Of a stretch of DNA of 64,000 bases, positions 455 to 63,600 are shown one piece after another (the stretch's first letter is position 1; each line of letters begins with the position of its first letter). The DNA is from Amoebophrya sp. A120 (lineage: Eukaryota; Protista; Dinoflagellata): contig CAJINV010000002.1 of assembly GCA_905178155.1 (NCBI GenBank), positions 6,428,476-6,492,475 on the forward strand. Direction: 5' to 3'. Under the pieces are notes generated by a model, which saw only the letters and a list, made by a program, of their open reading frames with translations, did not search any database and was not told the origin of the DNA. The position numbers were made by a program, and so were the translations under genes.

Positions 455-660
455 GCATGACAAATTTGGATTCGTAGTGTAGTGCTGTTTGAGCTAGCCC
501 AGCAGCATCACGGATCTAGTTCATCATGCTGATTGGTGGAGGACAAATTGCAAAACGCGACGTGATCATGCTTCTCGTACGTGGGGCTCCGCATGAGAAA
601 CATTTTCAGCATGCAGATTTGCATTACAGCTATGGGTTGGGGACGTTTTTAAATACGATG
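455..660. mobile_element. Introner family B, right part only (left end outside window, interrupted by nested element)
   Basis: Aligns by eye to 7408-7612; ends GGGGACGTTTTTAAATACGATG. Confidence 0.75.
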
Positions 661-3600
661 CACAACCCTTGCAGTTCATCAAGCACAACGCGAAGCACCC
701 GGCGGCGGACACCGAAAACGCACAGCAGCAATTGAACATTCAGTGGGAATGGGACGACGTGCTCGTCAACCTCGGGTCCGGGGGGACGCCGGCCGGAAAC
801 CGCCCCAACCAAAACATCCGCGGGTATGTGAACGGCTTTTCGTGGCGACCGTCCGCGGAGTACGATTCCCGGCAGGGAACCACGGGTATCCTGTTCACGT
901 TCGGCTTCCGGTTCTACGGGACGCTGCGGGCGCCGCAGGGACGGGCGATCTTTTTATCGCAACCGAGTCACGTGTGGGAGGTCGCGACCTTGTCAACGGA
1001 TGGGGGCGCGACGGAGTGCGTCGGGGTGCAGTACAACCCGGGCGTGGGGCTCAAGTGCAACACGTTCAAGTACCCGGGGTACCAGGGGAATAACTTCGCC
1101 AACGGGATTTTCTTCTTCTACGACAGCGCCGCCACGGTTGCGATCGACACGAAGATCTCCCTAAGGCTGAACAACCCGAACGTGGCGGTCAACATGTTCT
1201 GGCTGGCGTATTCCTACCAGTACATGAACGGAATTATGCGGGCGCCGTTCACCATGGAATTAGACAAGCCGATCGCGTATCAACTGCAAATATGTCTGGG
1301 TCTGGAAAAGTTGGAATCTGTATTGCGTGTTTTGCACTCCTGTAAAATCTGCATTGCGTGACCGACAAAAGCGGGAATACTTTGTCATGCAAAAACGTAG
1401 TTTCTCATGCGCATTTCACATGAGGAAGCGTCCTGAAAATTTGTCATGCTTGGCTGCGCTCAGGAGTACGCTCAGTCATCGCAACTTAGCATCACAAGTT
1501 TCCAGACCCAGACATATATGCAATGCATATCGCGACGCAGGGGTACGGCAGTGGGGACGTGATCTCCACGACCTCCTTGGCGGTCAACGAAAAGAACAAG
1601 GTGACGCTGCTCTTCCGCCCGGGAAATACGGTGATTCCGATGTCCTCGGTTTTAATTTCAGGCTATCTCGTGATACTGCCGCCGACCGGCTTCCAAGTGG
1701 ATAGGACGGGTACGGGATTTTTTATTGTTTCATTTGCTGGAATTACAATTATGAATTAGAATTGTCGTCTTTGTTGTATGTAGTGAGGTCACCGAACGGT
1801 TCTAACCGGGGAGTTTTTTTGCCATCCAGCCAGCAAAACGCCCGGCAGTTTCCAAGCGGCCGGAGGGCTTTTTGCACAAAAAAAAATTTCAATTATCAAG
1901 CGGCTCTGGCTATGTCGGCACCGAATCGCCAGCGGATTCTATCGATCGCCGCTTGGTAAAACGACGCAGAGAAGCCAGCAAAAGGGGCGCCCTTCTGAGG
2001 CGCCCGGCGCACCTAATTCCGCCGATTTGGGGCGCCCAAAAAGGAGCGCGAAAAAAACGCGCCCAAAATCAGAACAGCGAAACAGCATGGCACGGCCGCG
2101 ATTTCGCAGCATTTTGGGCTTCCGCGAAAGCGGCCGCATTTTCGCCGGTTTCAGAGCCTGGGAAGCTTTGCAAAAAGCGCCGGCTAGAAAAATAAAAACG
2201 CAGAAAAGCAAAAGCGCGCCAGACACGCAAAGCCAATCCGCATGCTATGGGCCCGATTTTTCTTCGCTTTTTGGTCGCCCCCCGTGGCACCCGGATCGGC
2301 CCCATAACATGGGGGCTGGCTTTCGGAAAGGAACATCGGGAATTTGCCGAAATTTGCGACGTTTATCAAGCGGCCGCCATACCGTGCGGCCTAACGTTAC
2401 TCACGGCGGTGTGGCGAGCCCAGAAAAAGCAACGCCGCGGCCAAGGCGACGGCCGGCAAGAAAACGCCCACGACCTCACTACCTCCGCCCCGGCGGCTAT
2501 ATTTGGTAATGATCGTTTTCATACGAGAACTCGTTCTTGTACTAGGCACATGCATGCTGCAACGAAATATTAAGCGAAATGGTGTCCATCTCCTAAACTG
2601 TCAAATACAAAACTCAGCCGCCCCCTCTTCTGTCGCGGGCTACAATACCCTTCCGTGTTCCGAGTGGCCCGATGCGGACCAGCAGCAGAACCGGTGGCTG
2701 TGCAACCTTCGGGACATGGCCCTCTTTCGGGATGCGCAGTATGCCGTGCAATTGGGCGTGATCAACCCGCCACAGCCCATGATCAACACGGCGTGGCGGG
2801 TGGAGGTGTGGCAACTGGACAGGTCAAAGCCGCTTGCGACTACCCGGGAAATCCGAGGCATTTCCATCTCCGGCACCATGGTCGCGTCGTTTGAGCCGTT
2901 TAATCAGGTGCTCGGGAACACCAACAAGATCACGTTCAAGTTCCAACCCTCCCGAGATGTCACTATCGCCGCCAACGCAACCTTCGCCATCACGGCGCCC
3001 GCCGGGTTCCAAATCAGCAAACGGTGCGCGGGCTTTGAGCGAGGAACCTTGCCGGCCGACACGGTGTGCAAGGGCACCGATGACGTCGAGGCGCGGCTGC
3101 GGTTCCCGGGGCAGAACGCGATCAAGGGCGGGGAGCTGTACGAGTTCAAATTGGACGTGATCAACCCGAGCCAAAACTTGCTGAACACGCCAAACGTGTG
3201 GCGGTTCGACACGGTGCGCCCGGACGGCATTGTGAGCGATACGACGAACTATCCAGGTATAAGAAATTTTTTGCATTGAAGATTCATCTTGAGATCATGA
3301 TGTTCATGGGTTGCTAAATAAAGCGCAAGCATGATGATATCAGATCACAAGCCTTTTTGTACGTGCATAGAGAAGAATGGAGCGCAGCAGGCACGTGCTT
3401 ATAGAACCTCTACTTGCAGCCAATAAAACTTCCACCAGGTTTTTTTCTGTACCCCTCCGAGTTCGCCTCGTTTACCGTCGTCCCCAGCAGCCGGTTAGCC
3501 GGGGTGACCAGATTAGACGTTCGCTTTGTTTCAAAGGTGGGGATCGCCACCGGCTCTTACATCCGAATTATGGCCCCGATCGGGATCAAGTGGCACCGAA

Positions 3601-6600
3601 CGAATCCAGCGTTTTCCACCGCCTCCTCCGTCACCGGGACGAATTCCATGTCCACGGAAAGTCCAGTGATTGGCTCCAGCTCCGCGACGGACAACACGTT
3701 GGATAACATGCTCCTACTCCGGTTAACGCAAAACCTGTTTGCGGACTTCGAGTACGGTGTGGCGCACAACATCCTTGTCCCAGCTCTCACGCCGATCCCG
3801 AACCGGTACTGGATTGACACGTATGTGGAGACCGGCGACCCGACGGCCGGGGACTTCGACTACATTGCCAGTCTCGGCGCGCCAGGGTTCCGGACGCAGG
3901 CGCTGTTTAATACAGAGGTGATATCAAATGTAACAATGTCTGGGTCTGGAAGATTCCGGGATTTGTCATGCTAGTCCGGCATGACTCTGAGCTCTGTATT
4001 GCGTGGCCGCAAACGGCTTCTCTTGCCTGTCATGCAAAAACGCAGCTTCTCATGCGGAGTACGCAACTCTGAACCTAACCACGGAAAGACTTGTCATGCT
4101 TGGCAGTGCATTTTTACAGTATGCGCATTTTTCCCTGACTGGCATCACAAGTTTCCAGACCCAGACATTTTTGCACTTGATAGGTGAATGCGTACAACAA
4201 CGTGGAACTCGCTTGGAACAACCCGACGACCATACAGTTCGAGACCACGACCGCGGTGACGTCGATCTTGTCCGAACAGGGCACGGTGTTGAAGCAGGCC
4301 GAGCTGTACATCCAGGCCCCCCCGGGGTTCACTTTCATCTGCCCCACCGGCGGGTGGAACCCACCCACGCAGGTCATTCCGGACGGGTTCACGAAACTGC
4401 CCACGGACGCGGAGTGTTACATCAACCACCAGGTAGCGGAGGAGCGGCGCGTGGTGCACATTTTGTTCAAGACGGTTGGTTTGGCCATGAACACGAAGTA
4501 CATCTTCTTGGTGGAAATCGTGAACGCCGCGAGTGTGAACCCGACGACCAACAAGTTCGTCCTGGAGTCCCGGTTTGACAATGTGAAAGTCGAGGGAATC
4601 ACGATCGACGGCTACGATTTGGCGAAGCCGATGGCGAACACCCGGTACGCCGCGGCGGGCATGTTGGACACGGGCGAGGACAGAACGGTCGACGCCTACG
4701 ACAACCAAGTTTCTTTTGTCATGGGCGTCACGCAAAGGATGATCGCGAGCAGTGTGGTGGAGGTACTCAATAGAATCAACGCATAGCGTTGTATGATTTT
4801 TTTCTGCTAGTAGTACTAGTAGATCTACGCTATCTTCAGGACACCCATGACGCGGCAGATTGATGTGATGTGTGTGTCGGTTTCTTCTCTCTATTCACCC
4901 CATGGAAGTATCGTTGGGATGTTGGTGCTGAATTCATTGTACTGAACAGTGGAGCTGAGTTATTTTCAGATCGCTGATGAAATGACAGTAATTGCAACTC
5001 AACATCAAAATGTGATTCAAAAGGTCGGCGGCCCGACCGGTTTCCTGTTTTCCCCGCGTTGCATCGGGCACGTGGGGTGGGCCCAGAAGTTCGCCTCTGC
5101 CGAGACGCTGGTTTTCCCCGACGTGACGGAGTGCGTCTCAATGGCCGCGACCACCGGCGAGGGAAACAAGATCCGGATCACGGTGGCGACCGCCATGGAG
5201 ATCGGAGCCTATCCGTTCTTCGTGAAGGTGCAAAACCCGAATTTCAACATTCCCACGGAAAAAAACTACTGGACGATCCGAATCTACGAACCGGGAAGCA
5301 GCGTCGCCACCATGGCAGAGGCCTGGGTGGTCGGGTTCGATATTCAGGTATGGTTAGTTTGTAGAGTGAAGAATGGTGGACGAGGTCTTCTTCAGTATTC
5401 GGTTTTTGCTTTGTTATCGCGTTTGAAATGCAATTTCATTTTGTGTGTTGTGATGCAGTCGGTCGGAATCAATATCAATTGTATGCAAAATAAAAATATC
5501 TAGTGCCTATGTACTTATCATTTACAGGTCGTGAAAGACGTGGAGGTGTTCCCCTACAACCCGGGCAACGGCATTCCCGGCGAGGCCGCCCCGAACCCGC
5601 TGGACATTCGGTTTAAGCTGACCACGCGATTACCCTCGGTCTCCGAAGAAGCTAATGGAGCGCTGATATTGGTCGTGCCGCCGTTCGGGTTTCACTTCCC
5701 AAGTGTGTGCCGCACCTTCATGACGGACCCATACGCGGGGGATGCGACGAGCCCGTACATGGCTATTCCGTCCACGACAATTTGCAATCCGCCGGACTTG
5801 TACACGCCGGAACTGATTAATCTTTACTACAGGCTGGGACACCCGAACTTCTACCTGGAATTCGGACAGACGGAAACGGCGGTATAGAACAGCTACAATG
5901 ATGAATACCAGCTTTTTTGTTATTCGTTTCGCGAGGTGGAGGTGAATGAAGATCGGAAGTGGTTCATCTGTCACGGCACTTACTCACAATGAACTAGCCG
6001 TGCTCTACTTGTTGATAGAAAATGCCTGCTTTCTTCATTCAACATTCATATATGCAACAATCGGTGAACAATCTGCATATCAAAAGTTTCAACGATCGGC
6101 TACAGATTTCCGACGACATCCGTTGGGAGATTTATTTCCGGGAGGAACCTCCAGGCACGATTACGCGGATGTTCCGGGTGCGATCTGTGCCTGCCGGCGG
6201 GCCAGCGTACGCCAGATTAGTCCGCGCAGGGTACATCTTGGAGTCGATGACCTGCTTCCCCGAGGCCACGGGGGCGAACGGGGTGACCAGGCAAGAGGAC
6301 TGTCTGAACGCGGGGAAAAATTTCGCCGCCCTTGTGGAATCGAACTGCGGAACGATCGACGGACAGGTTGCGCTGGGCGCGACGCCGGCGATTCACGAGG
6401 CCTTTCTGAACAAGTTCGCGGATCGGGAAGTCGCGTTGGACCAAATTTCGGACTGCATCGCGCAGAAGGTGTGGAAGATCCACTTCGACGAGTTGTTGGT
6501 CCCCGTGGAGATGCGGCTCTCCGGCCCGGCACTGATTTTGAAGTTGGGAGAAAACACCCACATGGTGGCGGAGCAGCTGTACGCCTTCCGCGTGATGGTA

Positions 6601-9600
6601 GAGAACCCGATGCAGACCTTCGACAACGTGCACGATTTAACCCGGTGGTGGACCATTGAGACCCGCACGATGCCGAAGCCCAGCGTAAACAAGCGGTCGC
6701 AGATCAAGGACCGATTGGACTTGAATTACAAGGTGCACAGTTTCGCGGTGTACCCCAGGATCTCGTTGTTTCAGCTCCAAACCTTGAACTACATTGGGCA
6801 AAGCGAGACCGATGTGAAAATCTCCTTCGACATCATTTCTGATTTAGCCCCGCAAGCGACCATTCTCATCACCGCCCCCACGGAGTTCCAGTTCCGCGTT
6901 TGGCGGGGCGAGAACTCGCTGACTTTCGGCGACCCACCGTTGCCCAGCTACCCCTGGAACCCGCCACGCGATGGGTCGACCGGCCTGTTTTTGAACGTTT
7001 TACCGGACGGCACGGCGCACAGGCCCTGCATCTCGCCGTCGATAAGTGCGGCGGACTACCAGGTGATGGACCAGTTGTTCCCCAGGAGTGCGATCAAGGA
7101 CATCACGCGGTTGCCCGAGTACGTGTCGTGTGTCGTGATCAATGCGTACCAAATTATGATCACCAACACGGAGCCCGTTCGTGGCGGCCGGACTTTGATG
7201 GCCGGACCGGTGTATGAGTTTCTGATTGATGAAGTAGTGAACCCGCCGCGCACACCCTTCACCGCTTCAAACCTGTGGCGGATCGTTGCGAATACCACTA
7301 CCGCGCTCGGGCAGGAGGTGTGGGCGACGTATCCTGAGTAAAAACATCCCCACCCCATAGTCAAGATGGGGAATCTGCTAGACAAATCAACAAGCTTAGG
7401 TTGTTGCGCATGACAAATTTGGGCTCCTAGTGTAATGCTGTCTACGTCGTCCAGCAGCATCACAAATCTAGCCTATAATGCTGATAGATTGGAGCATTAC
7501 AAATTCCAAAACACGACTTGGAAATGCTTCCCATGGGTCTCCGCATGAGAAACATTTTGAGCATGCAAATTTGCATGACAGCTATGTGCTGGGGACGTTT
7601 TTACATAGGATACGACAGAGGGGTGGGTCATCTTTCCGGAATTGGCCATCACGCGAATCTCCAGCGACAACCCGGCCAATGGGCTGTTTACGACGTTCAC
7701 GATTCAAGTCGGAGTGTTGACCACAGTCCCCGGCCAGGGATCGATTCTGCTTCGCGCCCCGCGGGACGACTTTTACTTCGGGCCACGACTGGCGTTTGAC
7801 GGACCGCCGCCGGATCTGCTGAACCCGATCCCCCGCGCGTCTGGGGGCAGCCCGCCGAGGCCGGCGAAGGGCGGCCCGGACCTGCCCTGCACCATCGAGG
7901 CGCCGCAGCCGCAAGGGAATCTGCAGTTTATCTGCCCGATAACCAAGACGCCCTGCGAAGAGGTATGAACATAGGATTTGGGCCGTTTATCGTTTTAGTG
8001 TAGAAGTTGTAAGTTGTCTAAGTGCACTCTTACGTACAAGAATCAATTTGATGTTCTTGACAAGGGGGAGTATCGTATGAAAGATGAAACATAAATTACT
8101 AGTAGTAGCATCCTGGTGTCTACTGTTCCTTTTGTTGAACAAATCACAGAAAGCGCGGCTCGAGGCCTTGGACCTCGGGCGTTCTGCGAAGGACCAGCTG
8201 TATGCGCAGGAAATTCAGGCCCTGGAATTTCCCTGTCAGCAAGTGACCGCGGACTGCGCGTCGCGGCGGTACGACAAGTTGTTCTCCTGCAAGTACCGAA
8301 CGATTTTGAAGGAACAGGTAATGACGCCCGCGGAGCTCCAGGCAAACCAGGACCTCGTGACCGCGTGGAACTCGGCGAACACCAAGCAACTGACCTGGGA
8401 ACCTTTCGAGGCCCAACTGGAGATCACGCTCGCGACGGACATTTCGATGAAGCAGGACCAGGTGTTGACATTCTTGCTCACCGGGTACAACACGCTGTAT
8501 CGGAATTTCACCGCGTGGCAGAACGAATTTACGTTTTCCACCAGAAACGCGGACTCGGGGAAGACGACCCTGGATGAGCGAAAAGGCGTGCCCGGCTTCA
8601 AGCTTTTCGGTGTGGTATGGATTGCAAAAATGTCTGGGTCTGGAAGAATCCGAGTTTGTCATGCTAAATCTGATCGATGCAAAAATCTGTATTGCGTGAC
8701 CAGCAAAAGTCCTCAGTTTTGGTTACCAGAAGCCGGCATTTCTCATGTGGACTTAGCATTGCATAGCCTTCTCAAAACTTGTGATGCTAGAGCCCACATT
8801 CCAGACCTTCTGGGTCAAGCAAAATATGGATGACAAACCCGGCAACATTCCAGACCCAGACATTTTTGCATTTGATATGTGGTCTACGTCAGCAAAATCG
8901 ACGCGCAGGAGACGAAAGTGTCGAACACCTACAACCGGGTGGAGATCACCTTCCGGCTGACCAATCCGGTGAAGCAACGAGGGCTAATTATTCTGAGGAA
9001 AAACATCCCCACCCCAGAGTTGCCATGCAAATCTGCATGCCAACAAAGTTGCTCATGCGAAGCCCCATGAGAAGCTATTTCTAGTTGTGTTTTGGGATTT
9101 GTGATGCTAGGAATAGCATGATATGCTAGATCTGTGATGCTGCTGAACTAGCTAAACAGGTTTGCACTACGAGGCCAAACTTGTCATGCGAAGCAACCAA
9201 AGTTGGCTGATTTGTCTAGCAGATTTCCCATCTTTATTCTGGTATGGGGACGTTTTTACTCAGGATATTAATCCGGATCCAATACCCTACGAAGTTCGAA
9301 CTCCCGCCGCAGTCCGGCGGCGGCGCGGGAACCAACACGATTGATGTCAGTGAAACCGTGCCGAGAAAGGCGAAGCGGAGCCAGAGGGGGAACATCATCG
9401 AGTTAGACAGTGAGGACGAGGACTTCCCAGCTGGGTTAGACATGATGATCACGATCACTTTGTCCAATCCCGACATCTCCCCCGGGCCATCGGAGAACAT
9501 CTGGATCTTTGAGACGTTTGAGGTGTCGCCACAAGCACCAACGGGAACGACTCCGCCCGCCTCAGCGCTGACCATGATCGATTTGAACCGAGACGTGCAG

Positions 9601-12600
9601 GGATTCCGTATAGGCTCTTTTCGAAGTAGAAGGAAGATGCTTTTTTGTTCGTATGACTGAAGTGTCTGAAGATGCAGATGCTGATTCAGTATGACAGTAG
9701 TCGCATGAGATGTGGTTTTTATTTTGCCCAGCAAGACGCCAGTAAAACAATTTTAAGGTATTTACGGCGCGTTCCGTTCGACGAACGTAATTTCCACCAT
9801 TGACTCTCCGACTGTGGTGAACAAAGTCGCCGTCATATGCGAAGAAAAAAGTGTTACATTTACACATGGTGTTGCAGGCAACGCAAGACAGACAAGTTGT
9901 GTCATGCTGGATATGCTTAGGAGCCCGCTTCCATATTACGTGTTTATTTATTCCCTAGTGGTCTCTGCACTGCAAGTTTTCTCTGTCGTGCGGAGAAAGT
10001 TCTTTGTGTTGCTGAAGTTGCAACAAGCGTGTAACTACTGTAACATTTTTTTCTTGGGATACGGGACTTTCGTCCTCGAATCCGATCTCCGGTTTATTCC
10101 GTGCAAAAACGTCCCCACCCCAGAGTCAAGATGGGAATTTTGCAAAACAGATCCAGAAGTTTTTGCGGTTGTGCATGACAAGTTTGGGTCAGTAGTGTAG
10201 TGGTCCTTGGCTAGTGAAGGCACATCACAAACCTAGCTCCTTATCCTGATTGGAGCATGACAAAGTCCAAGACAGCATGAGAAAATGCTTCTCATGGGCC
10301 TCCGCATGAGAAACATTTTGAGCGTGCAGGTTTGCATGACAACCGCGTCGTTGTACTTGAGGATGTGTTATATGTCTCGGGCGCACGTACATACTAGCCT
10401 GCAGGGACGGCGGAGCCGGAAAAAATGGCACAGTATGGTTGGTGGCGAAATCAGAGTTGGAATATAGTGGCCGGGAGATGATGGTGATGGCGCTTTGGTG
10501 TCCGCCTGACCCACTCGCCCTGCGTCTCAGGCCACCTGCGGCTATGGCACAATGGGGGGGCAAAGTGCGTCGCTTTTTGTTTAGCATGACAACAACGGGG
10601 TGGGGACGTTTTTACATAGGATACGGCTCGACCCAACCGCGCGCTTGCAGATCTACATGCCTGTCGGCTTCATGCCCGTCGAGCTCTGCGGCGACTGGTC
10701 CCGGTCTTACCAGGACGGGAATCTAGTCTACACGGAGATCCCCCGTGGAACGTCCTGCCGCGCGATTAGCGACCCACTGGAGCCGGCGATCGAGTTGCGG
10801 CCCGGGGCGGTCTATGGATTGCAAAAATGTCTGGGTCTGGAAGGTTGCAACTTGTCATGCTAACTTTGGATGCTAAAAAAATCTGTATTGCATGACCAGC
10901 AAGGGGAACCAAGTTTGTGCTACGTGGGGAGGGCATTTGTCATGCTGTAGGGGCATCACAAAGCGCTCTAAAAATCTGTGATGCTACGGCATGCATCACA
11001 GACATCATGGGTCATAGAAAATATGCATGACAAATCTAGAAATCTTCCAGACCCAGACATTTTTACATTTGATACGGTCATCCAGTACGGGTTGGACTAC
11101 GCGTTTCAATTTGAGTATGGGACTGTCAGGATCGAAATCGACAAAATCGAAAAACTTGTGATGCACAAAATCGATGCCAGTTAGACCCACAGTTTGTAGT
11201 CGGCGCATGACAAATTTCCCTCGTCCTGGAAGCGAATCTGTCATGTGGTTTAGGACAAAAGAGCTTCCCTCTGTCATGCTTGCCACCAGCCCAATTCTTG
11301 ACCCTTAGCAGGACTACAATCTGCCTCCTTTGCGTTCTCTGCAATAGAGTCACTTTTTGTGTCGCATTTTCTGCATGACAGATTATTTCGACTTTGTCGA
11401 TTTCGATCCTGACACATCCATATTGAGGTCATCAATGCGGCTTATATCACGGACGAAAACAACTGGCGGTTCCAAACCATGCTGAACAACGTGGTCCTGC
11501 ACTTGGACAGAAACGTCTTTGGGTTCTCGCTGCAGGAACTGCAGGACGTATAGTTTTGTTTTTTGATTTGATCTTGAACTTGATCATGAAGAAGAAGTTT
11601 GTCCCACCCCCCGGGTGGCATAATTTTGGATGTTACAGGTCTACTTGTTCCTTTGTGTATGATTTATTACACGGGTCGTTTTGAGCAACTACGTAGATAT
11701 TTATGATGTCATTGGAGTACTTCTTGTGGTTCTGTAGTGGTACTAGTAGAATCCATGCTCTCGTCAACATCAATCAGATTTCCGTCCAACCCTACGACAC
11801 CACTCGTTCCGTGATGGGTCGATTGGCCGTGCAGATGCGAAGTACAAAGCTCATCACCGGCGCCTTATGGGAGTGTCAGGTTTGAAATCGACAAAGTTGA
11901 AACAACTTGCAATGCAGAAAATCGATACCAGTTGGAAGCCCAATTTTCAAGCAATGCATGACAAATTTTCCGAGCACCGGAATCCAATTTGTCATGCTGT
12001 TTGGGCACAGACGACTGCTTTTGTCATGTTACTTTAGCAGCTCTATCTCAAACCCTAAGCAGGCTGACAGTCGGCCTCACTTGCCATCCCGGCAAGACAG
12101 GCACTTCGTGCCTTGCATTTTATGCATGACAAACTATTTCAACTTTGTTGATTTCAAACCTGACGCTTCCATACGCATCCGACATTGTGATCACCGCGCC
12201 CATCGGGTTCAAGCCGCTGATATCGCAAGAAAAAACTGTTTCACTGTAAACTTGTAATGCAGAAACTGCATCTCAGAAGTGTTTGTCTTGCTACACATGC
12301 AAGACAGGCGATTTTTAGCTGTGTTTTCCCTTAGGAACCTCGCATGGCAAGTTTTCCCTGTCATGTGTAACGAACTTGTCATGCCAAACTTGCAAAATCC
12401 TTACAGTGAAACACTTTTTTCGCGCGATAGCTGAACACGCTGTTCACCATCCTGAACATTCCCGGCGGACACACGCTCGCTTCCACCACCACGTCGACCA
12501 AGGATAACAACAAGGTGACCTTCACTTTAGATTCCCAGGACCGCGTCGAGCCGAATCTGATGTTCGGGGTGGAAGTGTGGATCACCAATCCCGAGTTCAC

Positions 12601-27522: not shown

Positions 27523-27646
27523 TGTTTAGTTCGTTTGATAGCTATTTCGACACGCATGAAGCTCTCGCTTTTCGTTCTTCACCTCACTGTGGCCCATAGC
27601 AGTGCGCTTTGTTGAACCTTTGTTCAGTTTTACTATGGACGCATCC

Positions 27647-46203: not shown

Positions 46204-46209
46204 GGGACC

Positions 46210-46473
46210 TATCAAATGCAAACATGTCTGGGTCTGGAAGAATGCAAATTTTTGGCATGGTGTTTTTGCATGACACAGAGGGTCGGTCATGGAAGCCCTC
46301 GCATCACAGATTTCGAGAACGTTCCGTGATGCTTCATCCGCATGACAAATGCACCTGTTTCGTGACAGAAAATGGGAGCCTTTTGCGGCATATGCATGAG
46401 AGAGTTGTGCGTGTTGTGGAATTTGCACAACAAATTCGGATCCTTCCAGACCCAGACATTTTTGCATTTGATA
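46210..46473. mobile_element. Introner family A in putative 3' UTR
   Basis: TSD GGACC/GGACC; starts 6 nt after the inferred stop codon. Confidence 0.9.
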
Positions 46474-51600: not shown

Positions 51601-51995
51601 GGCTATCAATTGCAACCATGTCTGGGTCTGGAAGACTGCGCAGTTTTTCAATATGCTTCTGGTTCTGCAAGATGTGCTGGAACCAATGCACGCAGGGCAT
51701 CATCAGCACAAGTTCTGCGGAAGCTTCTCCATCCTTCCTAGATTCAGCAGCAGAAAAACTAACAACAGTTGGCATTGTCCTTCCAAACCCAGACATGCTT
51801 GTTTATCCTTGATAAGGCCGCACGGAAGCTGATTTAATACAGTTTAACAGTGAAACGAGCGGTTTGACGGACAACGGGCCGGTGACGAAGAAAATTCTGC
51901 AGATTCTGCGGGAAATCATGATGGAGGTGCGTGAGGATAAGTTTGGCTGGCTTCGTGATCCGTTCCTGGACGCTGACGAAGTTTTTTTCAAATAA
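48657..51995 (+). CDS. ilvE: Branched-chain amino-acid aminotransferase (fold type IV PLP enzyme, ~436 aa)
   Basis: Exons 48657-48678,48996-49110,49319-49526,49847-50187,50557-50600,50850-51023,51179-51324,51519-51603,51820-51995. LNYGTTVWEGLKVFR, FRPDKNYDRM, LYVRPILFG, GSVKCSGNY (PLP lysine), EMSAANVFFV, ILPGVTRDSV, EAFGTGTAA, GPVT..DKFGW. Confidence 0.95.
48679..48990. mobile_element. Introner family A, aged
   Basis: TGTCTGGGTCTGG / GACCCAGACA cores; TSD CCCAA/CCCGG; frame restored. Confidence 0.8.
49111..49313. mobile_element. Introner family D
   Basis: TSD GTCAA/GTCAA. Confidence 0.92.
50188..50551. mobile_element. Degenerate introner (non-canonical intron)
   Basis: TACGG.. / ..TTTCCATA; TSD AAGGA/CACGG; removal gives KEKGFSDNMYVE, as expected for BCAT; no GT-AG. 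Confidence 0.6.
51024..51173. mobile_element. Introner family H, opposite orientation to 45321
   Basis: TSD AATCG/AATCG; 150 bp. Confidence 0.92.
51326..51514. mobile_element. Highly decayed introner, now a GT-AG intron (51325-51518)
   Basis: TATGCATTGC...GTGGATA ends; TSD TGAAG/TGAGG. Confidence 0.6.
51604..51814. mobile_element. Introner family A, aged
   Basis: TSD GGGGC/AGGCC; frame restored to the BCAT C-terminus. Confidence 0.82.
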
Positions 51996-52809: not shown

Positions 52810-55800
52810 ATGGGGCGCGGTAAAGGCGGCAAGGGCAAAAAGGGCGGCGGTGGGGGCGGCGCTTTTTCGGAGACGCCTGCACTGTATGTGGATTTTCGCT
52901 TCGATACTCCCTCGGCGCACCCGCCCACTATCAAAGGCTACTTCTACCTGGCGGGGCGCAAGCGCTACCCGGAATTTCGCGCGTACCCGTACGTACTGCG
53001 GCCGGACGACAAGTGTCTCACACCCGAGCATCACGAGCCTATCGTCGGCAATTTTGACACGCCCGAGGAATTTTACGACAGAAAGTGGCAAACCCGCGTC
53101 CTCTGGACGCTGTACGACTACAGCAAGGGAGACTTGAATTACGTGCCGATCCTGTCGTCTTACGAATCAAGGCTTACTGTCCGTGTAGAGGACGCGAGCT
53201 GGGAGGAGTGGGAAAAAAGGAACCCGGATTCGCCACGCAAATTATCCTGAGCAAAAGCAGGGTCCCCATCGCATCCTGGAGAAGTCAAGATGGCAAATCT
53301 GCTATACAAACCAACAACTTTTGGCTGATGTTGCGCATGATAAGTTCGGGATCGTAGCAAAGTCGTCTTTATCTGGTCGTGCAGCAGCATGTCAGATGCT
53401 TAACGTCGTGATTCAAGCATGACAAATTTCATTTTCAACAATAAAACACGACTGGAAAAAATAAATGCCTCTCGTGGGGCTCCTGCGCATGAGAAACATT
53501 TTCGGCATGCAGATTCGCATGACAACAACAAGAACTCTGGGATCGTGGGGACGTAGTTTTTACTCAGGATGCAGGTACTCCGTCGATTACTTTTCGACGA
53601 CCAGCGGACAAAACAAAATTCCTCGCGGCCGGGAAGAAAAGCTGTCCCGGAAGTTGTCCGAGGTCTTGCGGCACCGGGCGGAACATTTAGGGTTGCAGAT
53701 CGACGCCGCCGGATTTGTGTTGATTTCGGACTTGCTGAACTGCAACGACTACCCTCTGCAAATGTTGTGTCGCACTAGTAAAAATCGCAGTCATGCAAGA
53801 CAAATTATCTCTTTTTCGAGCTAAATCAGCGTGAAAAAGTGCATTTGTTACTGTTATGTTGGTGACCTGATCATGCTGATTTGTTGTACTGTAATTACCA
53901 ATAGGACTAGTATTTGGGGCTCGCGCCGCCGTGTTGGCACAACGGCGCGGGGATCTGCGCATAACAATAGAAAAAGCAGTACTGCAGCAACTAGAAACAG
54001 TTCGAAGAGGCTTGGTTGAAGAGCTGGAGCGTGCTTTCTCTGGGGCTGACTGTTCCCGGAAGGGCGGCCGACGCACTAACGCCGCGCGATGATGGCAAAC
54101 AGCTTGATGGCAACAAAGTACAAAAACAAAAAGGAAGAGCACGCGTAGCCAGGAACATAAAATGAAGAAGAAATGGCGGCCAGTAGAGCGACCGGCCCAC
54201 CAACTGCAGCCCAACGCCTAGCGCGCCAGATCCGGCCGGCCTCTGTACTGCCAAAAGCCGGGTCAGGTAGAGGTAGATAAGGGCACGCACTTCCGCTTGG
54301 TGCGCGGCAAGGTAGCCGTGCCTCCTACCTTCTAGGAAATGTAAAGCAGACCCGTGCCGGGCGGCGTCCCCCCTTTCTACTTCAGCTACCCAGCAAGCGC
54401 AGGCAGCTAGGGCGAGAACGCGAGCCCTTGGGGTCCGCAGGTAGGCTCTTTTTTTAGGTGCGACTCCTGGCCGCCGCGCTGGTACTCGTCGTAGCAGGTG
54501 GCCGGCCAAAGCGCTGCAACCTGCCGAAGGCGCCGGCGCCGCTGCACGGATGTAATCTCTGTGGCGGCTGGCATCTGTTGCCTTCGCATCAAGCCGCCCC
54601 CTGTGCGCCGAGAGTTTCTCTTGCGTTTGGTCTTGCGCTTGTTGTGTGCATGCTTTTCCATCCGGGCTGCCCATCGGCGAGGCTTGGCCCGATACCCTGT
54701 AGCAAGTAGCAGGACCACGCAACTGCTGGCGGTTGCCTCCCAACAAATCTAACTAAGAGGCACGCCTGCCAGGGGTGTTTTTGAGTTTTACTCTCGGCGC
54801 CGGCGGCCACACCTCAAAGCATGGAGGCAACAGCCATGCGGCTGGCTGTTTCTGATGTGTTAGCCACAGCCCCATTGCGGTTGGTTCGTTGTTTCTGTGC
54901 TCGGTTTCCTAGGCAAGCACCAGGGGCAGCAGATCGCCCGGGTAGCTGCGGTTGCTCAGTGTCAAAAACGATAAAAAAAGGCTTTTGGCTGTCGAGCTGT
55001 AGATGCTCGCTATAGGCGGAAGCTGTAGAGCTTAGGCTCTAGAGCATCACCAAACAGCTGTAGAGATTCAGCTCTAGAGATTGAGCTCTACAGGTTTTCG
55101 AGCTATAGAGGCGCTCGCCCTAATCGTTATCAATCTTTTTTCGCAGTAGCGTGGTGATTCGCCAAAAAAAATTAGAAAAAAAAAGGTCATCTCTAGAGAT
55201 TTGATCCTTCTTTGCCCAGATTTGAGCCTAGTCTGCACCACAGTAGCATGCAGATTTCAGAAACAAAGCAAGTAGCCTTCTTTGAGCCTTCTTTGGTTCC
55301 AGGTTTGACCCTAGTTGCTGCAAGTACTATAGTTCTCTTGGCTAAACGAAAACGATACAACTTCATCAATTCATAACGCTTTCAAGCACTTCGCCCAGTC
55401 GTTGGTGGGGCAACACGCGGTCGGCAAGCAGGAGATCGTTTGGCTGGTGAAGGCGAACCAGAAGCAGCGCTTATCAAATGCAAAAATGTCTGGGTCTGGA
55501 AGAATGCAACTTGTGATGCTGCATTTGGATTCCAAAACAATCTGCATTGCATGAGTACCAAAGGGAATGCAATTTTTGCTCCGCCGAGAAGGCATTTGTC
55601 ATGCGGAATAGGCATCAGGAAGCCCTCAGAAAATCTGTATTGCTAGGGTATGCATCACAGACATCATGGCTCACGCAAAACGTGCATGACAACTGTCAGA
55701 ATCTTCCGGACCTAGACATTTTTACAGTTGATAGCGCTTTGAGTTGGACAATGCTTCCGATCCGGCCAAGATCCGCTGCACCCAGGGCCATTCGGTGAAA

Positions 55801-57671: not shown

Positions 57672-60600
57672 ATGGCTCGAAAAAGAACGCCGCAACTGCC
57701 TCCCCGCAGCAGAACTGCGAGCCTCGCAGTTCTGAGCCTGTATTTGGGCGCTGGCGCGGGAATATTTTTTTCGACGCCAACAAGTGCGCGGAGAGCTGCA
57801 GGTGCGGGTGGGACGAAAGCGAATACAAAATTTCTGGCAAGCAGGACCACACCGAACATCAAAGGCGAGCAGCTGATATTTACGACTAGGGGAGGTGGAC
57901 CACGAGGGGTGGAAGCTCCTGCAGCGTTGGAGGCACATGTTGAAACCCCATATAATTACCAGATTGCCAGCCAACCCGTTCCACCTTACAACTCCGCGGA
58001 TCTTCAAACTGCCGCTTCCTATGCTCCTGCTGCCTCCTCGCAGTCGCAGGGACAAGAAGGAAACTTGTTCGAGGACGTGCAAGAGGCACGACGAGCGATG
58101 GGAAAAAGATTTTCTGCGGCTCCTGCCACAAGAACGTCCGCCTTTCAGGCCAGGCCGCCACGTGGCGACTTGACGAAGATTCTATTGCAAAAACCTAGCA
58201 ACGAATACCACCTCCAATACATGGCCCACGTGATGCAAAGTATGCAGCACGCGCAAAAAGAGTACAACAATGTCGCACGCGCACAGGCGGAACACGAACC
58301 AGGGCGGGACATCAAGGGTTCCGCTTCGGGTTCGGGGACGCAACCGACACAGCAGCTCGTCCACTACGACAAACAAGATCGCGCATCTGCCAGTAATGAT
58401 CAAACGCAAGGACAAGAAAATCAATCGACTTCTGAAGGAAGGAATGCAATAACGACATCTCCACCAGAACTTGAAATTTCCGAAGAGGCAGACCGCCACG
58501 GAAGAACCTACGCCATGCAGCTTCCAGACACGAGTATGCAGTACCTGGAGCAGCAGTTTGAGAAGCTGTTCCTCGAGGAGCCGAAAAACGAGATGTCTGC
58601 GGCAGAGATCGCGACAAATCGTCAGGTGCTCCTGAATTTCTTCGCGAACAAGGACGAGCTTTTCTCTTCGCGCGCACAGATGGAGCATCTAGATCACGCG
58701 TTGCGGGAAATTTTTTTCCGCTATTGGCACGTGGTGCAGATGGGAAAATCTCTTAATATTGTGAGTGATGTTGAAAGAACAGATACGGACGAAACACAAA
58801 CAGCTCTGGAGGTTGATGACGTGGAACAAGTAGAAGACGAAGCGGGAAATATGAAATGCCAAACACCAATTATCACCACCGCAGCTGCTGCAGCAACCGA
58901 CTCAGTAGCGAAATTCGACCAGATTCCCGCCGGCGATTTGGCCAATCTGGAAGCGATTTTGCGGGTGTATCGGGCGAAACAGCCGGACAGGTTCAGAACT
59001 TTAGACGACCAGGTACGGCGGACGGTGACGCGTAACGGCAAAAGCTGGGATTACTGGTCCGGGATGCTGGCCTTTGTGCATCACTGGCGAAAGATCGCCA
59101 AAGTTCCTTGCAGTCATCTTGCGTCGAGTCAGCAAGCAAAAGCAAATACGAAAACAGGAACAGCAGTGTTGGCACGATCTCGAGATGCGAGCAGTTTTTT
59201 GACGGGAAAAATTAACCTGGTTGAAGATCCTGGTCGGGGCCGTGCGGATGAGGGCTCGCCTTCGATGCGGGAACGTATGGATTGCAAATATGGCCCTGGG
59301 CGGTCTGGAAATTATATGCAAGGTTCTACTTTCTCATGCGGATTTTGGATGACCCACCGTGTCATAATGTTCACAGGGCATCTTGAAAGGGCTTCTGCAT
59401 GCCTATCCACCGATAAGAAATGCCCTTGTCTGCCGCGTAACTAAGTAGCAAAAACGCGGCTGCCTTTGCTGTTCGTGCAAGAATGCAGATTTTCATTTTT
59501 GTAGTATCGGTATACAAAGGGAAGGCAAGGCAGCATCACAAGGTTGCATCTTTCCAGACCCAGATCGATGTTTGCACATGATAGGACGCGGAGAATCTGG
59601 TTCTTCCACTTCGTTCCCGACGGTGACGAGAAGGCGGCTTGATGGCGCGGCTTCCTCTGTGCGCCAACAAGAAGATGGCTCTGGTTCCTCGTCCTTCATC
59701 CCCAAGGACGATGTAGGTGAGGAATGCGAAGAAGCGAAGTCACAGACTCCACTCGCTGTACTAGCCAGCGAGAATCTCGTTCTCGACGAGAAGGAGCTAC
59801 AGGTTCGTGAAAATTATGATCCCGCGCGCGTGGAAGATCCGCTACCAAAGGACCACCCCGAGGAACAAGACGATAAATCGAAATCCTCTGCTACAGTAGA
59901 AATTTCATCAGAAAGAGAACCTTCAGAGGAGGACCAGAAGAACGCACCATCCGAACAAGCGTTTCCGGCTTTGGAAGCCGCGTCTAAACCGTCCAAAAAG
60001 AAGAACAAGGACGGTGGAGGTGGAGCTCCGGGTGCGCGAACTCTGAGGACCCCTTCCTCGACGTCATTCGACAAAGCAAATCATTCGACAAAGCAAGGCT
60101 TCTCGTGGTCTGAACGGTTGCAGCACAGCATTGTGGGCCCCCAAGGTGGGGGCAGTGCTAACGCTGACAAGCCGAAAGGGGAGCAGCAGACGGGGAAGAA
60201 CGGGGAGATGAAAAAGTCCGGCGGCACTAGCCCACCGGGCGCAGCGACAGAGAAGAGTAGTGGGAAGCAGCAGACAAGCAGTGGCATTGCAGATGGCAGC
60301 GCTAGTACAGAAGGAGACAAACCGCCGGGAAAAACTTTTACTACGAAAAATGGGATCGAGAAGATGAGCGGGGCTTTGACAGCCGTTCCTTCCTCGTCCC
60401 CCACTCCGATTGCTGCTCGTCCTCCAGAACGGGCTGGCACCAACGCGTTGTACACAAAACGCACCGAGCAATTGCGCGCGAAAGCCCGTGCGGGTGTGGT
60501 CCACGCTGGGGGGCTCGTGCCGGGGATGGTCTCTACCGTGCCGATGGACCACATAATTCCAAGCGGCGTTGCACACGACTTCCACGGAGATGATGCCTCA

Positions 60601-63600
60601 CCTTTATCCGCTGGCATTGTAGAGGACTTCGCAAATGGAAATACAGCATCAAACATCGGTTTCGGCACTAGTGCCACCCCCGGGGGCCAGGCCTTTTACA
60701 GTCAAGTGTCGCCCGATCGCCATGGAGTTGCCCTGCCTTTCGGTGAGGAGGGCTCATTGGAGGCCCGGCAGGGGGTTGCGGCCACGCCGGCAACCAATAA
60801 AGTGGACATCCTGGTCGAGAATTTTAGAGCAGGGTCAGTTTGCCAGCTTCCACACGCTATTTCCGGCAGTACGGCCGTGTATTCAAGTAGCTCCCGGTGC
60901 AGCACACCTAGGTTGGTGGAGAAGGCCATTCTTTTACCAGAGAGCGAAGAACAGGAGGAGAAGAATTGCGGCGGGATTCGTCTGGATGATCAAGTTGGTG
61001 AGATCGAAAATGACCGGAAAAAGAGCTGGGACAAGATGAACCTGAAAAAGAACAAGGGATCTGTTGAAAAATCTGTTGCGGCGGTGAACAAAGACACCAG
61101 TGTTGGTCGTTTAGAAGCTGCGGATGATGATGTTCACGGCGAGAAGAAAAACCGGAGGCGGGAGATCATTGCTGATCCTCCGTATCGTGACGGTGTTGAA
61201 GGAGAGAAGATGGAGCTGGATTCGCAGCCCGAGGCCGAGCCAGAAGAACCGGATGAGGCACAATTTTTGGCTGCGTCTGCTGCCCTGGATCCTGCGACGA
61301 GTCAAAATGCTGTTGTAGTAGTCCCAACAGACCACGAGGCTTCGGCTGCTCAGGAAGTAGAGACTCCTCTTCGGCCTGATGATATTACAGAAGAAGCCTT
61401 GATGGCAACATCAAACATTCGTCAAGAAGATGCCGTGCACGATACCTTGCAGCTCCCCGCGACTTCTGTGAAGAACACGCAGCGCATGCTATTCTGTGTA
61501 AAAATGTCCCCACGCCAGAGTTGTCATGCAGATTTGCGATTACAGGAACATTTGTAATGCGCAGATCCAAGAGAGGCATTTTCAATCGTGTTTTGGTATT
61601 TATAATGCTGAAACAGGATGAGCAGATGATTTTGTGATGCGGTTTCCGTTGCTACCCTTCACTACACTACGGACTGCAACTTGCCATGCGTGGCTCCCAA
61701 AACTTCTGGATTTGTGTTGCTAAGTTCCCAACTTGACTAAGTGGTGGGGACGCTTTTACAGATGATACATGCTGGAATCTTCCATGCGACTCGGCTGTGC
61801 CATCACCGACGTATTGCTGCGCAAAGAGCAACAGGCATCCAAGAAAAAAACTGGGTTAGTGTAACTTTCTTTGGCTGATAGCATCACAAATTTGCTTTAC
61901 ACGACGGAGAAAACCTGTCGTGCGTGGTTTGTAAGGGAAAACACACATGAAAAGAGGACTGCGTGGCTGTCTGGCATGACAGGCGTAACTCTGTATGCAT
62001 GTTCTGCATCACAGATTTACACTTACACAGTTTTTTTCATGCATAACAAGACCACGCCGGCGATGAAACCTACAGTTTGCACCAAGCCTGGCAGGAACTG
62101 GAGGCCGCCGAAGACGGACCCGTCTGCGAAACGGAGGTGTTGGGGCTTGTTTCCACTGGTCCTTGCGACCACGCCGGCTTCCACATTGAAGGGCTGGACA
62201 ACGATGGAGAGGAAAATGCCGCGACCACTCCAGGAGCAAGAGGATCGAAAGTTGTTTCGCAGCAAACCACGACACCGAAAACGAAAGGCAGAGCGAGCCC
62301 TGGTGGAGCTGCCGGGGGTAAAAAGACCAAAAAAGAGAAGCGGAAAATGAAGAAGGAAAGTTTACTCCAGGCCGGTGCAGCAGCAGACGATGATGTCGAA
62401 TTGACAGGCACTGCGGCGTCCTCCGGTTCCGGTTGTGCAACAACTAAAAATTTGGATTTTTTTCCAACCGGTTGTAGTAAGCGCTTTTCGACGTCGTCTT
62501 GTCAAGAAGAAGGTCAGGACGTTGACCTCCACGAGGAACAATCGCTCCAGGAAGCAATAAGGTTGCGGCCTGGTCGGCAGAAGGACACGGTCCGAGCAGT
62601 GAAACGCGTGATCGAAGAGGAGACGGCCGCGTTTTTGGACAACATCCAGGAAAGGGAGAAGCAGGCCACCAAGAATCTGGTCAGCGGCATGGCCGTGCTG
62701 GAGCTCGCTATTCGCCGCCCTGATTTCTCCTTTCTGGTTAACGCAGAATTTGCGAATACAACCGCAGATGATGGAACAAACGGAAACACAAATGACAATA
62801 AGGCAGGAGGAACATCTTCAGATGCGAATGCCACAGCAGGTCCAAAAGTTGACTTGATCGCGCAACTCGGGACGAAGTTGGAATTTTACACGACCTACCA
62901 CAAGAGTTTAGAAACGGTGTTGGAAGTGTGCCGCGCGTTTTCGAAGAATAAACAATCGGCGGAGAAGAAGGATTTGTGCTTTCAAACGTACAAGAAGCAC
63001 ATGGAAAACTTCTTTTTTCCGGATCCCGTGGTTCTAGCAACGGGGGACAGAGCCGCGGTCGAGGCGGAGATGGAGCGGAAAATGCCGTTTTTGGAGCGGG
63101 GAATCACCGCTATAACGAATGATATAGAGAAGAAGTTCGGGAGACTGCTTTTGCAGCAGATGGTAACATATGGATTGTAAAAATGTCTGGGTCTGGAAGA
63201 ATGCAAGATTTGTGATGCAGGTTTTTTATGACCCATGAGGTCTGGAATGCGAGACCCAGCATGACAGATTCTTTGAGGTCTTTATCATGCCTTTCCTGCA
63301 TGAGAGACTCCCTCTCAACTTGGTCAAAAGCGAACAGCTTTTGGTACTCACGCAACACAGATTTTTGCATCATTCAGATTTAGCATCACAAGTTCTAATC
63401 TTCCAGACCCAGACACTTTTACACTTGATATAACATCCGGCTCGGTGCCGGACGCCGTTGCCGCCCTCTACCACGAACTGAAACAGAGCGCCACGAACGC
63501 GGTCGCCGGGGAGATGAAGAATGTCTCAGCTCCCGAAAAATGCGGTCGTGCAACGGATCTTTCGAATAAAACTACGGATAGTGCGCCGGGGGAAGAAAAC

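Follow-up and report, generated by a model that had tools for sequence, protein, structure and literature searches.

A helically phased internal motif common to introner families of Amoebophrya sp. A120, a putative double-stranded DNA binding site for shared mobilising machinery

Introduction

The introner elements of Amoebophrya sp. A120 were described by Farhat et al. 2021 (PMC7789003). In the available text of that paper, their inverted repeat begins with TAT, followed by seven loose bases and at least three As; the elements carry 3-5-nt direct repeats and are non-canonical introns of ~240 nt. They fall into strain-specific families, and general transposase mobilisation was ruled out, no A120 transposase having been found. 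The movement of tens of thousands of introners without a recognised transposase, and their exact removal, are questions stated there.

Binding of subterminal repeats by transposases has precedent (available text of PMC5499845, PMC1636448 and PMC6188088). In hAT elements (Hermes, Ac), the MULE Muta1 (PMC5499845) and the pogo-type Lemi1/Emigrant MITE (PMC1636448), multiple short repeats behind the terminal inverted repeat (TIR) are bound by transposase and are required for, or boost, mobilisation. The hAT repeats lie in both orientations. As far as these sources go, the repeat usually belongs to one family, and its spacing in hAT is variable (PMC6188088). The ends of the IS607 family, such as IS1535, carry helically phased short motifs back from the terminus, which nucleate a multi-protomer synaptic complex (available text of PMC6188088).

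The elements analysed here correspond to the A120 introners of Farhat et al. in TAT inverted repeat, direct repeats and non-canonical removal, as far as the available text describes them. The introners are thus already published; the shared internal motif was not found in the literature searched, and the available text of PMC7789003, which covers terminal inverted and direct repeats only, makes no mention of the motif or its phasing. Like the subterminal-repeat systems, introners have multiple short repeats behind the TIR; unlike them, they have one rotationally phased motif in common across no fewer than 14 families whose inner TIRs differ. With hAT they share subterminal repeats in both orientations. 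hAT elements make an 8-bp target site duplication (TSD), and the 5 bp of introners fits hAT5 only (available text of PMC12730594). At 99% of introner ends the third base is T, TAT having been required in the search, whereas PMC1131882 gives it as ‘always G’ in hAT. With the IS607 family the phasing logic alone is shared: its elements have a bacterial serine transposase, no TIR, no TSD and direct repeats about one turn apart (available text), whereas introners have a TIR and a 5-bp TSD, with sites in both orientations and doublets spanning three turns. Ginger2/TDD-4,5 elements (PMC2836005) resemble introners in 5-bp TSDs, within their 4-5-bp criterion, but introner termini are TAT and not TGTNR. 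Family 38 of the A120 introners, a TIR introner with Copia/Gypsy-like ORFs and no Ginger termini (PMC12130899), may be a lead toward the missing enzyme, on a comparison by description only. Transib and the RAG RSS (PMC1131882) share the 5-bp TSD and have a free spacer differing by one helical turn (12/23), resembling, as an analogy only, the end-proximal introner site at 33-35 versus 41-48 bp. Introners have neither the CACAATG termini of Transib nor a nonamer at RSS positions.

Results

Introners in the window

The window (the whole 64,000-nt stretch analysed) is Amoebophrya sp. A120-type DNA with ~42 MITE-like introners. A 124-aa ORF gave a single match, a protein of Amoebophrya sp. A120, with 100% identity across 40% of the ORF. 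Elements were sought with a motif-blind finder (TAT..ATA, 5-bp TSD, TIR score). Of its 36 window candidates, 3 weak ones were discarded as chance-like (shuffles yield 1-2 each) and 33 were kept; a relaxed search, in regions chosen by eye and so not motif-blind, added 7, giving the 40 counted. In the list below, motifs are exact matches, elements come from the motif-blind finder unless marked, and strand is given where assigned.

1..660, long family B element, right part, cut by the window start; motifs 455, 621; outside the 40 counted
1278..1529, introner A1, TSD TCGCG, 3 motifs; excision by contig arithmetic
3922..4182, introner A1, TSD GGTGA, 4 motifs; spliced exactly, 266 = 261+5 nt
5449..5456, + strand, motif match outside elements, in a canonical intron; within chance
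7330..7612, introner B, 5 motifs; spliced exactly, 288 = 283+5 nt
8616..8877, introner A2, TSD TGTGG, 2 motifs; RNA-like contig piece stops at 8610, at the TSD
8989..9267, introner B, 3 motifs
9836..10061, introner C1, aged, 1 motif; relaxed search
10095..10623, introner B with ~250-bp nested insert, 4 motifs
10813..11074, introner A2, 6 motifs
11116..11422, introner D, 4 motifs
11866..12173, introner D, 3 motifs
12221..12429, introner C2, 2 motifs
12672..12921, introner A2, 3 motifs
12974..13191, introner C2, 2 motifs
13371..13595, introner C1, 2 motifs
13761..13968, E-like introner, aged, 0 motifs, 2 PWM sites; relaxed search
15838..16110, introner A1, aged ends, 5 motifs; relaxed search
17027..17289, introner A2, 4 motifs
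18333..18541, introner C1, 5 motifs
20623..20884, introner A2, 3 motifs
21044..21347, introner G, 4 motifs
28339..28641, introner F2, 5 motifs
33033..33340, introner D, 2 motifs; relaxed search
34960..35211, introner A1, 6 motifs; interior 95% identical to 45886-46137
36632..36942, introner D, 2 motifs
36997..37318, introner F1, 2 motifs
41613..41764, introner H, 3 motifs
41935..42275, introner F1, aged, 1 motif; relaxed search
45321..45470, introner E, 3 motifs
45547..45826, introner B, 4 motifs, every one on +
45886..46137, introner A1, 5 motifs: 45919(+), 45966(-), 46025(-), 46058(-), 46089(-)
46210..46473, introner A2, 3 motifs
48679..48990, decayed A-type element, 1 motif at 48737; ends by eye, outside the 40 counted
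49111..49313, introner C2, 2 motifs
51024..51173, introner E, 3 motifs
51604..51814, A-like element, aged, no motif site left; relaxed search
53243..53571, introner B, aged, 2 motifs; relaxed search
55472..55733, introner A2, 4 motifs
59276..59583, A-like introner, aged, 1 motif
61490..61767, introner B, 3 motifs
61836..62045, introner C1, 3 motifs
63169..63430, introner A2, 3 motifs

The introners have TAT...ATA ends, a 5-bp TSD and family-specific inner TIRs at positions 15-30. TAT termini were present in all 14 families (TAT being also a search criterion), and an A-tract at positions 11-14 in 11 of them, with D, J and K deviating. The TSD was perfect in 334 of 409 candidates, where the finder tolerated at most one mismatch. 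TIR, TSD, size below ~600 bp, absence of coding and high copy are those of MITEs. Contig depth summed over elements was 10^3-10^5 versus ~43 on unique DNA in X1, which is not a copy number. Exact removal from RNA of the element plus one TSD copy was seen directly for two elements, where RNA-like contigs of X3 and X5 skipped precisely 266 and 288 nt, and by contig arithmetic for a third. For the elements that could be tested, introners are removed from mRNA as non-canonical introns. The cut element at 1..660, after which RNA-like contigs pick up again at 661, holds a nested insert in common with 10095-10623, joined at motif 455; within 10095-10623, the 10-bp duplication of this insert includes the motif (10334/10584).

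The motif is concentrated in elements of all families

An earlier note on this DNA had claimed that unrelated TIR families share an internal motif, TGT[CGA]ATGC, that appears rare elsewhere. The motif is real, and the signal stronger than claimed: the whole window held 126 exact matches on both strands, versus a mean of 6.7 and a maximum of 14 in 50 whole-window dinucleotide shuffles, and 200 shuffles of element DNA gave a mean of 2.6 and a maximum of 9. The 33 motif-blind elements contained 111 of the 126 (12.8/kb inside versus 0.27/kb outside) and all 40 elements contained 122 (11.6/kb versus 0.075/kb). The 4 remaining matches were at 455 and 621 (cut B element), 48737 (decayed A element) and 5449; only the last fell outside any element, in ~53 kb of non-element DNA. 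The fuller motif is about AAA[TC][TC]TGT[CGA][AT]TGC[AT]. In 402 further elements from a related second assembly the rate was 12.0/kb inside versus 1.0/kb outside, the latter dropping to 0.33/kb once masked with TIR-only HMMs. Each of the 14 family consensuses built from these elements had 4-7 sites, and at least one PWM site was found in all 395 copies belonging to the 14 families. In favour of a shared mobilising protein (see below), a TIR element with an 8-bp TSD in L016 had no site. Against it, 8 of 47 unassigned candidates had none either, and at least two site-less ones, L036_2386 and a nested foldback of 111 bp in L017 with TAT ends and a 5-bp TSD, resemble real elements.

Several motifs per intact copy, as the note had it, holds for most elements, but 2 of 40 (13761 and 51604) have no exact match. 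Of seven positions quoted for 45886-46137, the five listed above are exact, while 46005 (-, ACATGACA) and 46074 (+, AGTCATGC) have one mismatch each.

The motif core is conserved

Across 375 copies, substitutions per site were 0.069 in the motif core, 0.258 in the remaining interior, 0.082 in the inner TIR and 0.197 in the A-tract flank. The core is therefore as conserved as the inner TIR (whose conservation is inflated in family A, where copies lay in loci chosen by TIR pattern), and it changed 3.7-fold less than the neighbouring interior, or 0.43 of the context-matched expectation for private substitutions. This contrast is not neutral decay, so that the objection which neutral decay would raise to a shared code fails. 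A single ancestor of all families from which the motif was simply inherited is consistent with the TAT termini and 5-bp TSDs common to all 14 families and with several sister families: A1/A2, C1/C2 and F1/F2 cross-match even with motifs masked, and J/K and M/C1 before masking. To call the families unrelated was thus an overstatement, although their inner TIRs do differ. However, site number, order and strand vary among families while phase is kept, and most between-family similarity disappears on masking motifs, which also reduces sensitivity. Such neutral inheritance is extremely improbable and is largely refuted by the conservation contrast.

The core/other rate ratio was 0.18 on internal branches, 0.41 on terminal branches and 0.54 in copies with close neighbours. 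Weaker constraint on terminal branches is expected if selection acts chiefly on transposing lineages. Relative to the interior rate, private core substitutions reached 0.39; for the old-minus-young increment the ratio was 0.40 [0.12-0.79], with age markers confounded with lineage sparsity; some constraint may follow insertion. This residual constraint would suit a dual use, in which a factor sitting on the phased array in the DNA flags copies already inserted, so that they are removed during transcription through polymerase pausing or loading of the splicing machinery. Such a mark would be orientation-neutral, private indels were somewhat rarer inside motifs (38/228 versus 22.6% expected, p=0.03), and U1 snRNA was undetected in A120 (available text of PMC7789003). 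On the other hand, constraint is looser on terminal than on internal branches (0.41-0.54 versus 0.18), the TSD0/TSD1 contrast (ratio 0.84, interval -0.66 to 5.07) is compatible with neutral decay, and copies stripped of most or all sites (13761, 51604, 59276) survive between coding exons, as known here from DNA alone. We regard dual use as doubtful; if true, it would define introns without a splice-site consensus.

Sites are phased on the double helix in most families

Motif sites were phased at 10.5 bp: those on one strand were whole turns apart, and between strands the phase was shifted by half a turn. Coherence was 0.50 for 75 interior sites (135 pairs), with the optimum at exactly 10.5 bp on a grid of 8-14, versus 0.26 for the best of 150 nulls under the identical grid search; the bootstrap put the period at 10.3-10.5 bp. 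Coherence was 0.43 with doublets collapsed (p=0.0005) and 0.32 in 18 held-out elements (p=0.001). Phasing was absent from families B (-0.02) and J (-0.13) in this test and weak in G (0.22) and A1 (0.32). Since the families are not fully independent, part of it may be inherited. The near-whole-turn spacing suspected earlier from family A extends across most families; the family A same-strand spacings of 39/20/33/31 are correct, and the off-phase 37 of family B lies at 7457-7494.

The most frequent unit was a directional doublet of sites 30-33 bp apart with a free spacer: 24 of 70 same-strand spacings were 30-33 bp, versus 3.8 expected, and TTGC stood at the downstream site in 11/24 and at the upstream site in 1/24. 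The end-nearest site lay 33-35 or 41-48 bp inside the element at 27 of 28 ends. An 11-bp deletion common to 12 A2 copies moved the end-proximal site by one turn; by contrast, +3/+6 insertions were mostly private or of differing sequence between copies.

Orientation and phasing point to duplex DNA

No orientation bias relative to the gene strand was found in any of the 14 families. Among 374 copies with a strand call, 47 lacked an exact site in antisense and 42 lacked one in sense. The motif could act in RNA, read by an RNA-binding protein or stiffening the intron hairpin through pairing of opposite-strand copies: when 39 elements of the window were folded in silico, bases within motifs were paired more often (0.77 versus 0.58), with mean motif-motif pairing of 0.38. 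Such pairing is, however, a trivial outcome of both orientations being present, and it was near zero in 4 of 5 folded copies of family B, whose six sites lie on a single strand and whose insertions are oriented 10 versus 11. Nor would single-stranded RNA be expected to show a 10.5-bp period and a strand-specific offset. We consider an RNA-level signal very unlikely. The suggested host factor that marks the sequence for removal is accordingly unlikely to act through RNA, though as a DNA-bound mark it is conceivable. The phasing with its strand-dependent half-turn offset, together with the absent orientation bias, indicates a duplex-DNA site rather than an RNA splicing signal. The motif is most likely a putative double-stranded DNA binding site for shared mobilising machinery. 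Between the transposase and the host factor first proposed, these data favour the DNA-level, mobilisation option; the shared recognition code is borne out by the conserved core and the phasing across families with different inner TIRs.

Discussion

On balance it is probable that the motif common to the 14 tested families is an internal double-stranded DNA binding site for one mobilising protein, most likely a trans-acting transposase. Several protomers would bind along one helix face and bring the two ends of the 110-330-bp element together by bending or wrapping it; cutting at the TAT ends and integration with a 5-bp stagger would follow. What is read in common would be the ends together with the motif array, which would leave inner TIRs free to drift between families while both arms stay matched. 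Concerted changes of both TIR arms were in modest excess (78 versus 45 expected), which suggests that matching of the arms is more important than their sequence. The paired arms, not the motif, would be the likely handle for RNA removal.

Other transposons get help from IHF, HU, Fis or HMGB. A co-opted host DNA-bending or chromatin protein could likewise bend or position the phased array while family-specific transposases read the inner TIRs. This would account for inner TIRs that are family-specific yet conserved within families, fits the phasing and orientation results equally well, and agrees with the absence of a recorded A120 transposase in the available text of PMC7789003. Against it, sites would be expected in ordinary host DNA, but ~53 kb held only one exact match, and many unseen transposases are required instead of one. 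The core rate of 0.069 against 0.197 in the A-tract flank is unlike a degenerate nucleosome-positioning code, and the arm co-changes suggest that matching outweighs arm sequence. We judge this host-cofactor reading possible but rather unlikely. Against the preferred reading, a single trans-acting transposase, none of 275 scanned ORFs (272 coding-scored ones out of 1427, with 3 more from the window, together covering <1% of a genome) matched a transposase or integrase Pfam family. No coding long element that could be the autonomous partner was found in 568 kb plus the window, where long copies were nested insertions.

A motif of fixed geometry that nearly every family carries unites ~2,000 ‘families’ in a single system. 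The ~45-bp doublet is a concrete bait for finding the binding protein, and TAT ends, a 5-bp TSD and a phased array plus an ORF give a rule for recognising the autonomous partner. MITE families can diversify their TIRs while retaining an internal, rotationally phased recognition code. A bolder and improbable reading is that A120 introners are one transposon super-lineage, with its identity in the phased internal code and not in the TIR, and that a single DNA-binding protein both mobilises them and remains on inserted copies, marking these as introns during transcription. If true, this would mean DNA-level intron definition in an organism without U1 snRNA or a splice-site consensus.

Enrichment of the motif in introners

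Short inverted-repeat elements interrupt the gene-dense eukaryotic DNA of the window, whose genes lie on the + strand. The one database match of ORF 51175-51546 was to Amoebophrya sp. A120 (100% identity across 40% of the query). The elements agree with the introners that Farhat et al. 2021 described in A120, which have an inverted repeat of TAT, seven loose bases and As, and direct repeats of 3-5 nt (PMC7789003). Elements were located by a finder blind to the motif (criteria: TAT...ATA ends, 5-bp TSD and 30-bp arm match). Removal of three weak, chance-like candidates from 36 left 33 elements, and a relaxed search of regions selected visually added seven aged copies, which raised the number in the window to 40. 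Family letters are our own and differ from those of the earlier note. The motif, TGT[CGA]ATGC on either strand, has 126 exact matches in the window; 111 lay inside the 33 motif-blind elements and 122 inside all 40, corresponding to 11.6/kb inside and 0.075/kb outside, and three of the four outside matches sit in a truncated or decayed element. Shuffling predicted 6.7 matches in the whole window and 2.6 in element DNA. The information reaches beyond 8 bp, approximately as AAA[TC][TC]TGT[CGA][AT]TGC[AT]. The shared introner motif is real, and the claim of the earlier note that it is concentrated in introners and scarce elsewhere was borne out; of the seven positions quoted there, five match exactly and the other two differ from the motif by one base.

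Removal of two elements was seen in contigs from sequencing runs X3 and X5, which were taken as RNA because canonical introns were skipped there too. These contigs skip 3916-4181 (266 = 261 + 5) and 7325-7612 (288 = 283 + 5), in each case the element and one TSD copy, and the same removal fits the 1278 element by arithmetic. The evidence covers the longest contig pieces, hence these three elements; run X9 contributed 147 partial reads only.

Other features of the window were also observed. Positions 16976-17423 and 18023-18203 are a local duplication of exon-intron DNA, and in the second copy the 17027 introner is missing and GGGCT occurs once, which makes it a natural empty site. GC-rich non-coding inserts lie at 1760-2500, 23000-24700 and 53900-55370; the first was taken as another repeat type because its summed contig depth in run X1 is very high, and the last splits a putative Tpt1/KptA-like gene, so labeled by resemblance.

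Family relations in the related assembly

A metagenome scan with the family-A TIR, which over-samples family A by design, gave at least 163 loci (L001-L163) from one related assembly. Among the matches listed (~560 kb after overlap removal), 402 distinct elements were found, with nearest-neighbor identity to window elements of up to 95%, and host DNA orthologous to the window was not found. Motif density among these matches was 12.0/kb inside versus 1.05/kb outside; masking by TIR-only HMMs lowered the outside value to 0.33/kb. In the window and the matches listed together, 395 of 442 elements belonged to 14 families with at least four copies each, and all 395 carried at least one site by the motif weight matrix. 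Such a site was absent in eight of the 47 unassigned elements, mostly weak candidates; L036_2386 and a nested 111-bp foldback were the real-looking ones. The foldback (approximately L017:1641-1751) is near-perfect, has TAT...ATA ends, a 5-bp TSD and no motif, and is nested in the TIR of a D element. Within an A1 introner lies a nested 523-bp TIR element with TAT ends and an 8-bp, hAT-like TSD (L016:1612-2134), also without a motif site.

TAT ends and 5-bp TSDs were common to all 14 families and an A-tract at positions 11-14 to 11 of them, whereas TIR positions 15-30 were unlike between families and alike between the two arms of an element. Interior HMMs cross-matched widely between families before motif masking; afterwards only A1/A2, C1/C2, F1/F2 and, weakly, D/F still did. 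Because masking lowers sensitivity (E recovered 5 of 52 of its own members), this result means no detectable homology, not independent origin. The families had been called unrelated in the earlier note; little interior homology indeed remains after masking, but the shared ends and TSDs and some cross-matching do not agree with that term.

Geometry and helical phasing of the sites

Phasing was analyzed with one vote per family consensus, each of which holds 4-7 sites. The end-nearest interior site lay at 33-35 bp (8 ends), 41-48 bp (19) or 56 bp (1), and never at 36-40 bp. Same-strand spacings fell at 30-33 bp in 24 of 70 cases (3.8 were expected, and the fullest 4-bp window among 1000 nulls had 15), with further peaks near 52, 75, 83 and 94, and convergent pairs occurred at 15-16, 45-49, 57-58, 67-70, 89-90 and 99-102. 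With one pseudo-dyad offset, the 135 pairs showed a coherence of 0.50, the grid search peaking at 10.5 bp (bootstrap period 10.3-10.5), compared with 0.26 for the best of 150 nulls under the same grid search. Collapsing the doublets gave 0.43 (p=0.0005), and taking a single family from each TIR class gave 0.42-0.52. Eighteen held-out elements, several of them divergent members of fitted families, gave 0.32 (p=0.001), and three new-TIR representatives gave 0.39 on 7 pairs only. No phasing was found in B (-0.02) or J (-0.13); the B array consists of three doublets 49 bp apart.

Doublets, two same-strand sites 30-33 bp apart, have spacers of 22-25 bp that are unrelated in sequence, and they are polar, with TTGC in 11/24 downstream versus 1/24 upstream sites. 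A minimal family of 109-116 bp (L047:2473, L050:1008, L096:552, L016:5734, L017:5259 and L022:12058) has two 30-bp arms that enclose either a single doublet (32-39 bp) or a lone site, and would suit assays as a naturally occurring minimal substrate.

Reading of the motif in DNA or RNA

Gene strand was called for 374 of 442 elements by a codon model trained on the window, where it gave + for 40 of 40. Orientation bias relative to gene strand was absent in all 14 families (all p>0.12); family B stood at 10:11, though all six of its sites share one strand, and motif counts were 707 sense and 643 antisense. In predicted RNA folds, TIR arms would pair in most copies, motif bases would be paired somewhat more than others (0.77 vs 0.58), and motif-motif pairing would be near zero in most B copies. 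The lack of orientation bias, the fold data and the 10.5-bp strand-offset phasing favor a duplex-DNA reader. The first and last of these, with the near-zero pairing in B, also make an RNA signal highly improbable. A DNA-bound splicing mark was weighed as well and is considered unlikely.

Substitution and indel patterns

Rates were estimated from 375 copies in the 10 families that have at least 12 members. In substitutions per site, they were 0.069 in the core, 0.189 at the wobble, 0.197 in the flank, 0.258 in other interior and 0.082 at TIR 15-30, and the core/other ratio on trees was 0.18 for internal and 0.41 for terminal branches. For private changes the ratio was 0.39 (0.43 matched for trinucleotide), climbing from 0.32 to 0.54 with closer nearest neighbor. 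Selection on lineages that transpose, together with decay after insertion, would be expected to give such a pattern; set beside these rates, neutral ancestry of the motif has very little probability. The old-minus-young increment ratio was 0.40 (0.12-0.79), with age markers that correlate with lineage sparsity, and a TSD-only contrast, in which TSD mismatch is an underpowered age marker, gave 0.84 (-0.66 to 5.07), so that some post-insertion constraint is possible. Nucleosome or A-tract positioning alone was given a lower rank, since conservation lies in the core and not in the A-tract. An origin by CpG decay was rejected, as introner CpG sites are not hypermutable (0.0725 vs 0.0705), although the related assembly holds a C-5 cytosine DNA methylase gene (L018:2635-6090).

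An 11-bp deletion in 12 A2 copies (one event) moves the end-proximal site by one turn. Off-phase indels made up 247/339 private versus 27/58 shared classes, many of the "shared" +3 classes being unlike in sequence. Across all families in the loci and the window, private insertions strongly favored multiples of three (+3, 80; +6, 46; +9, 15) over other lengths (+2, 24; +4, 27; +5, 12; +7, 12); these lie inside non-coding elements and are mostly not tandem duplications.

Search for the enzyme and nested insertions

In a Pfam scan, none of 275 ORFs matched transposase families, only host genes being found, and three scanned ORFs of window 1-512 had no Pfam match. Window 1-660 and L021:505-1608 were considered as ends of autonomous elements and rejected, each being an ordinary introner with a nested insert; long elements turned out to be nested insertions. 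Viral contigs gave no match to the family-A TIR or to the end-plus-doublet pattern. Prokaryote genomes gave three matches, regarded as chance because none had a TIR partner or TSD and motifs were few (2-3 per 10 kb).

In all cases examined, nested non-TIR inserts in introners lay at or next to motif sites:

Nested non-TIR inserts in introners
Window, 10334/10584 and 455
L062:571-1051
L063:3862-4492
L031:10314-10770
L029:632-1465
L031:11480-11848
L021:505-1608
L123:1-110

Their junctions showed motif-bearing 8-13-bp duplications, or (ATG)n/(AATG)n tails fused to the motif or ~7 bp upstream. Such nesting may reflect microhomology between retroposon tails and their target, or a site that is exposed or nicked. 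Neither of the two nested inserts of TIR type lay at a motif.

Relation to known systems and possible mechanism

The elements themselves are already known. A shared internal motif or phasing was not found in literature searches or in the parts consulted of the introner literature, namely the text and supplement of PMC7789003, PMC12130899 with its SI and Dataset S2, the 2020 Roy preprint, PMC11282704 and PMC12005148. Dataset S2 has no row with "Amoebophrya". The motif resembles a known kind of sequence, transposase-bound subterminal repeats: transposase binds such repeats in Muta1 (PMC5499845) and Lemi1/Emigrant (PMC1636448), and hAT subterminal repeats and phased IS1535 motifs are further cases (PMC6188088). 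In terminus tests the elements did not fit hAT, Ginger or Transib.

On balance, we lean towards the motif being an internal site for one trans-acting mobilizing protein, probably a transposase. Its protomers would bind motif sites on one helical face and would bend or wrap the 110-330-bp element, which could bring the TAT ends into synapsis. A host architectural cofactor might read the motif array instead, for which IHF, HU, Fis and HMGB provide an analogy; we hold this to be possible but rather improbable. The motif makes the missing mobilizer directly huntable.
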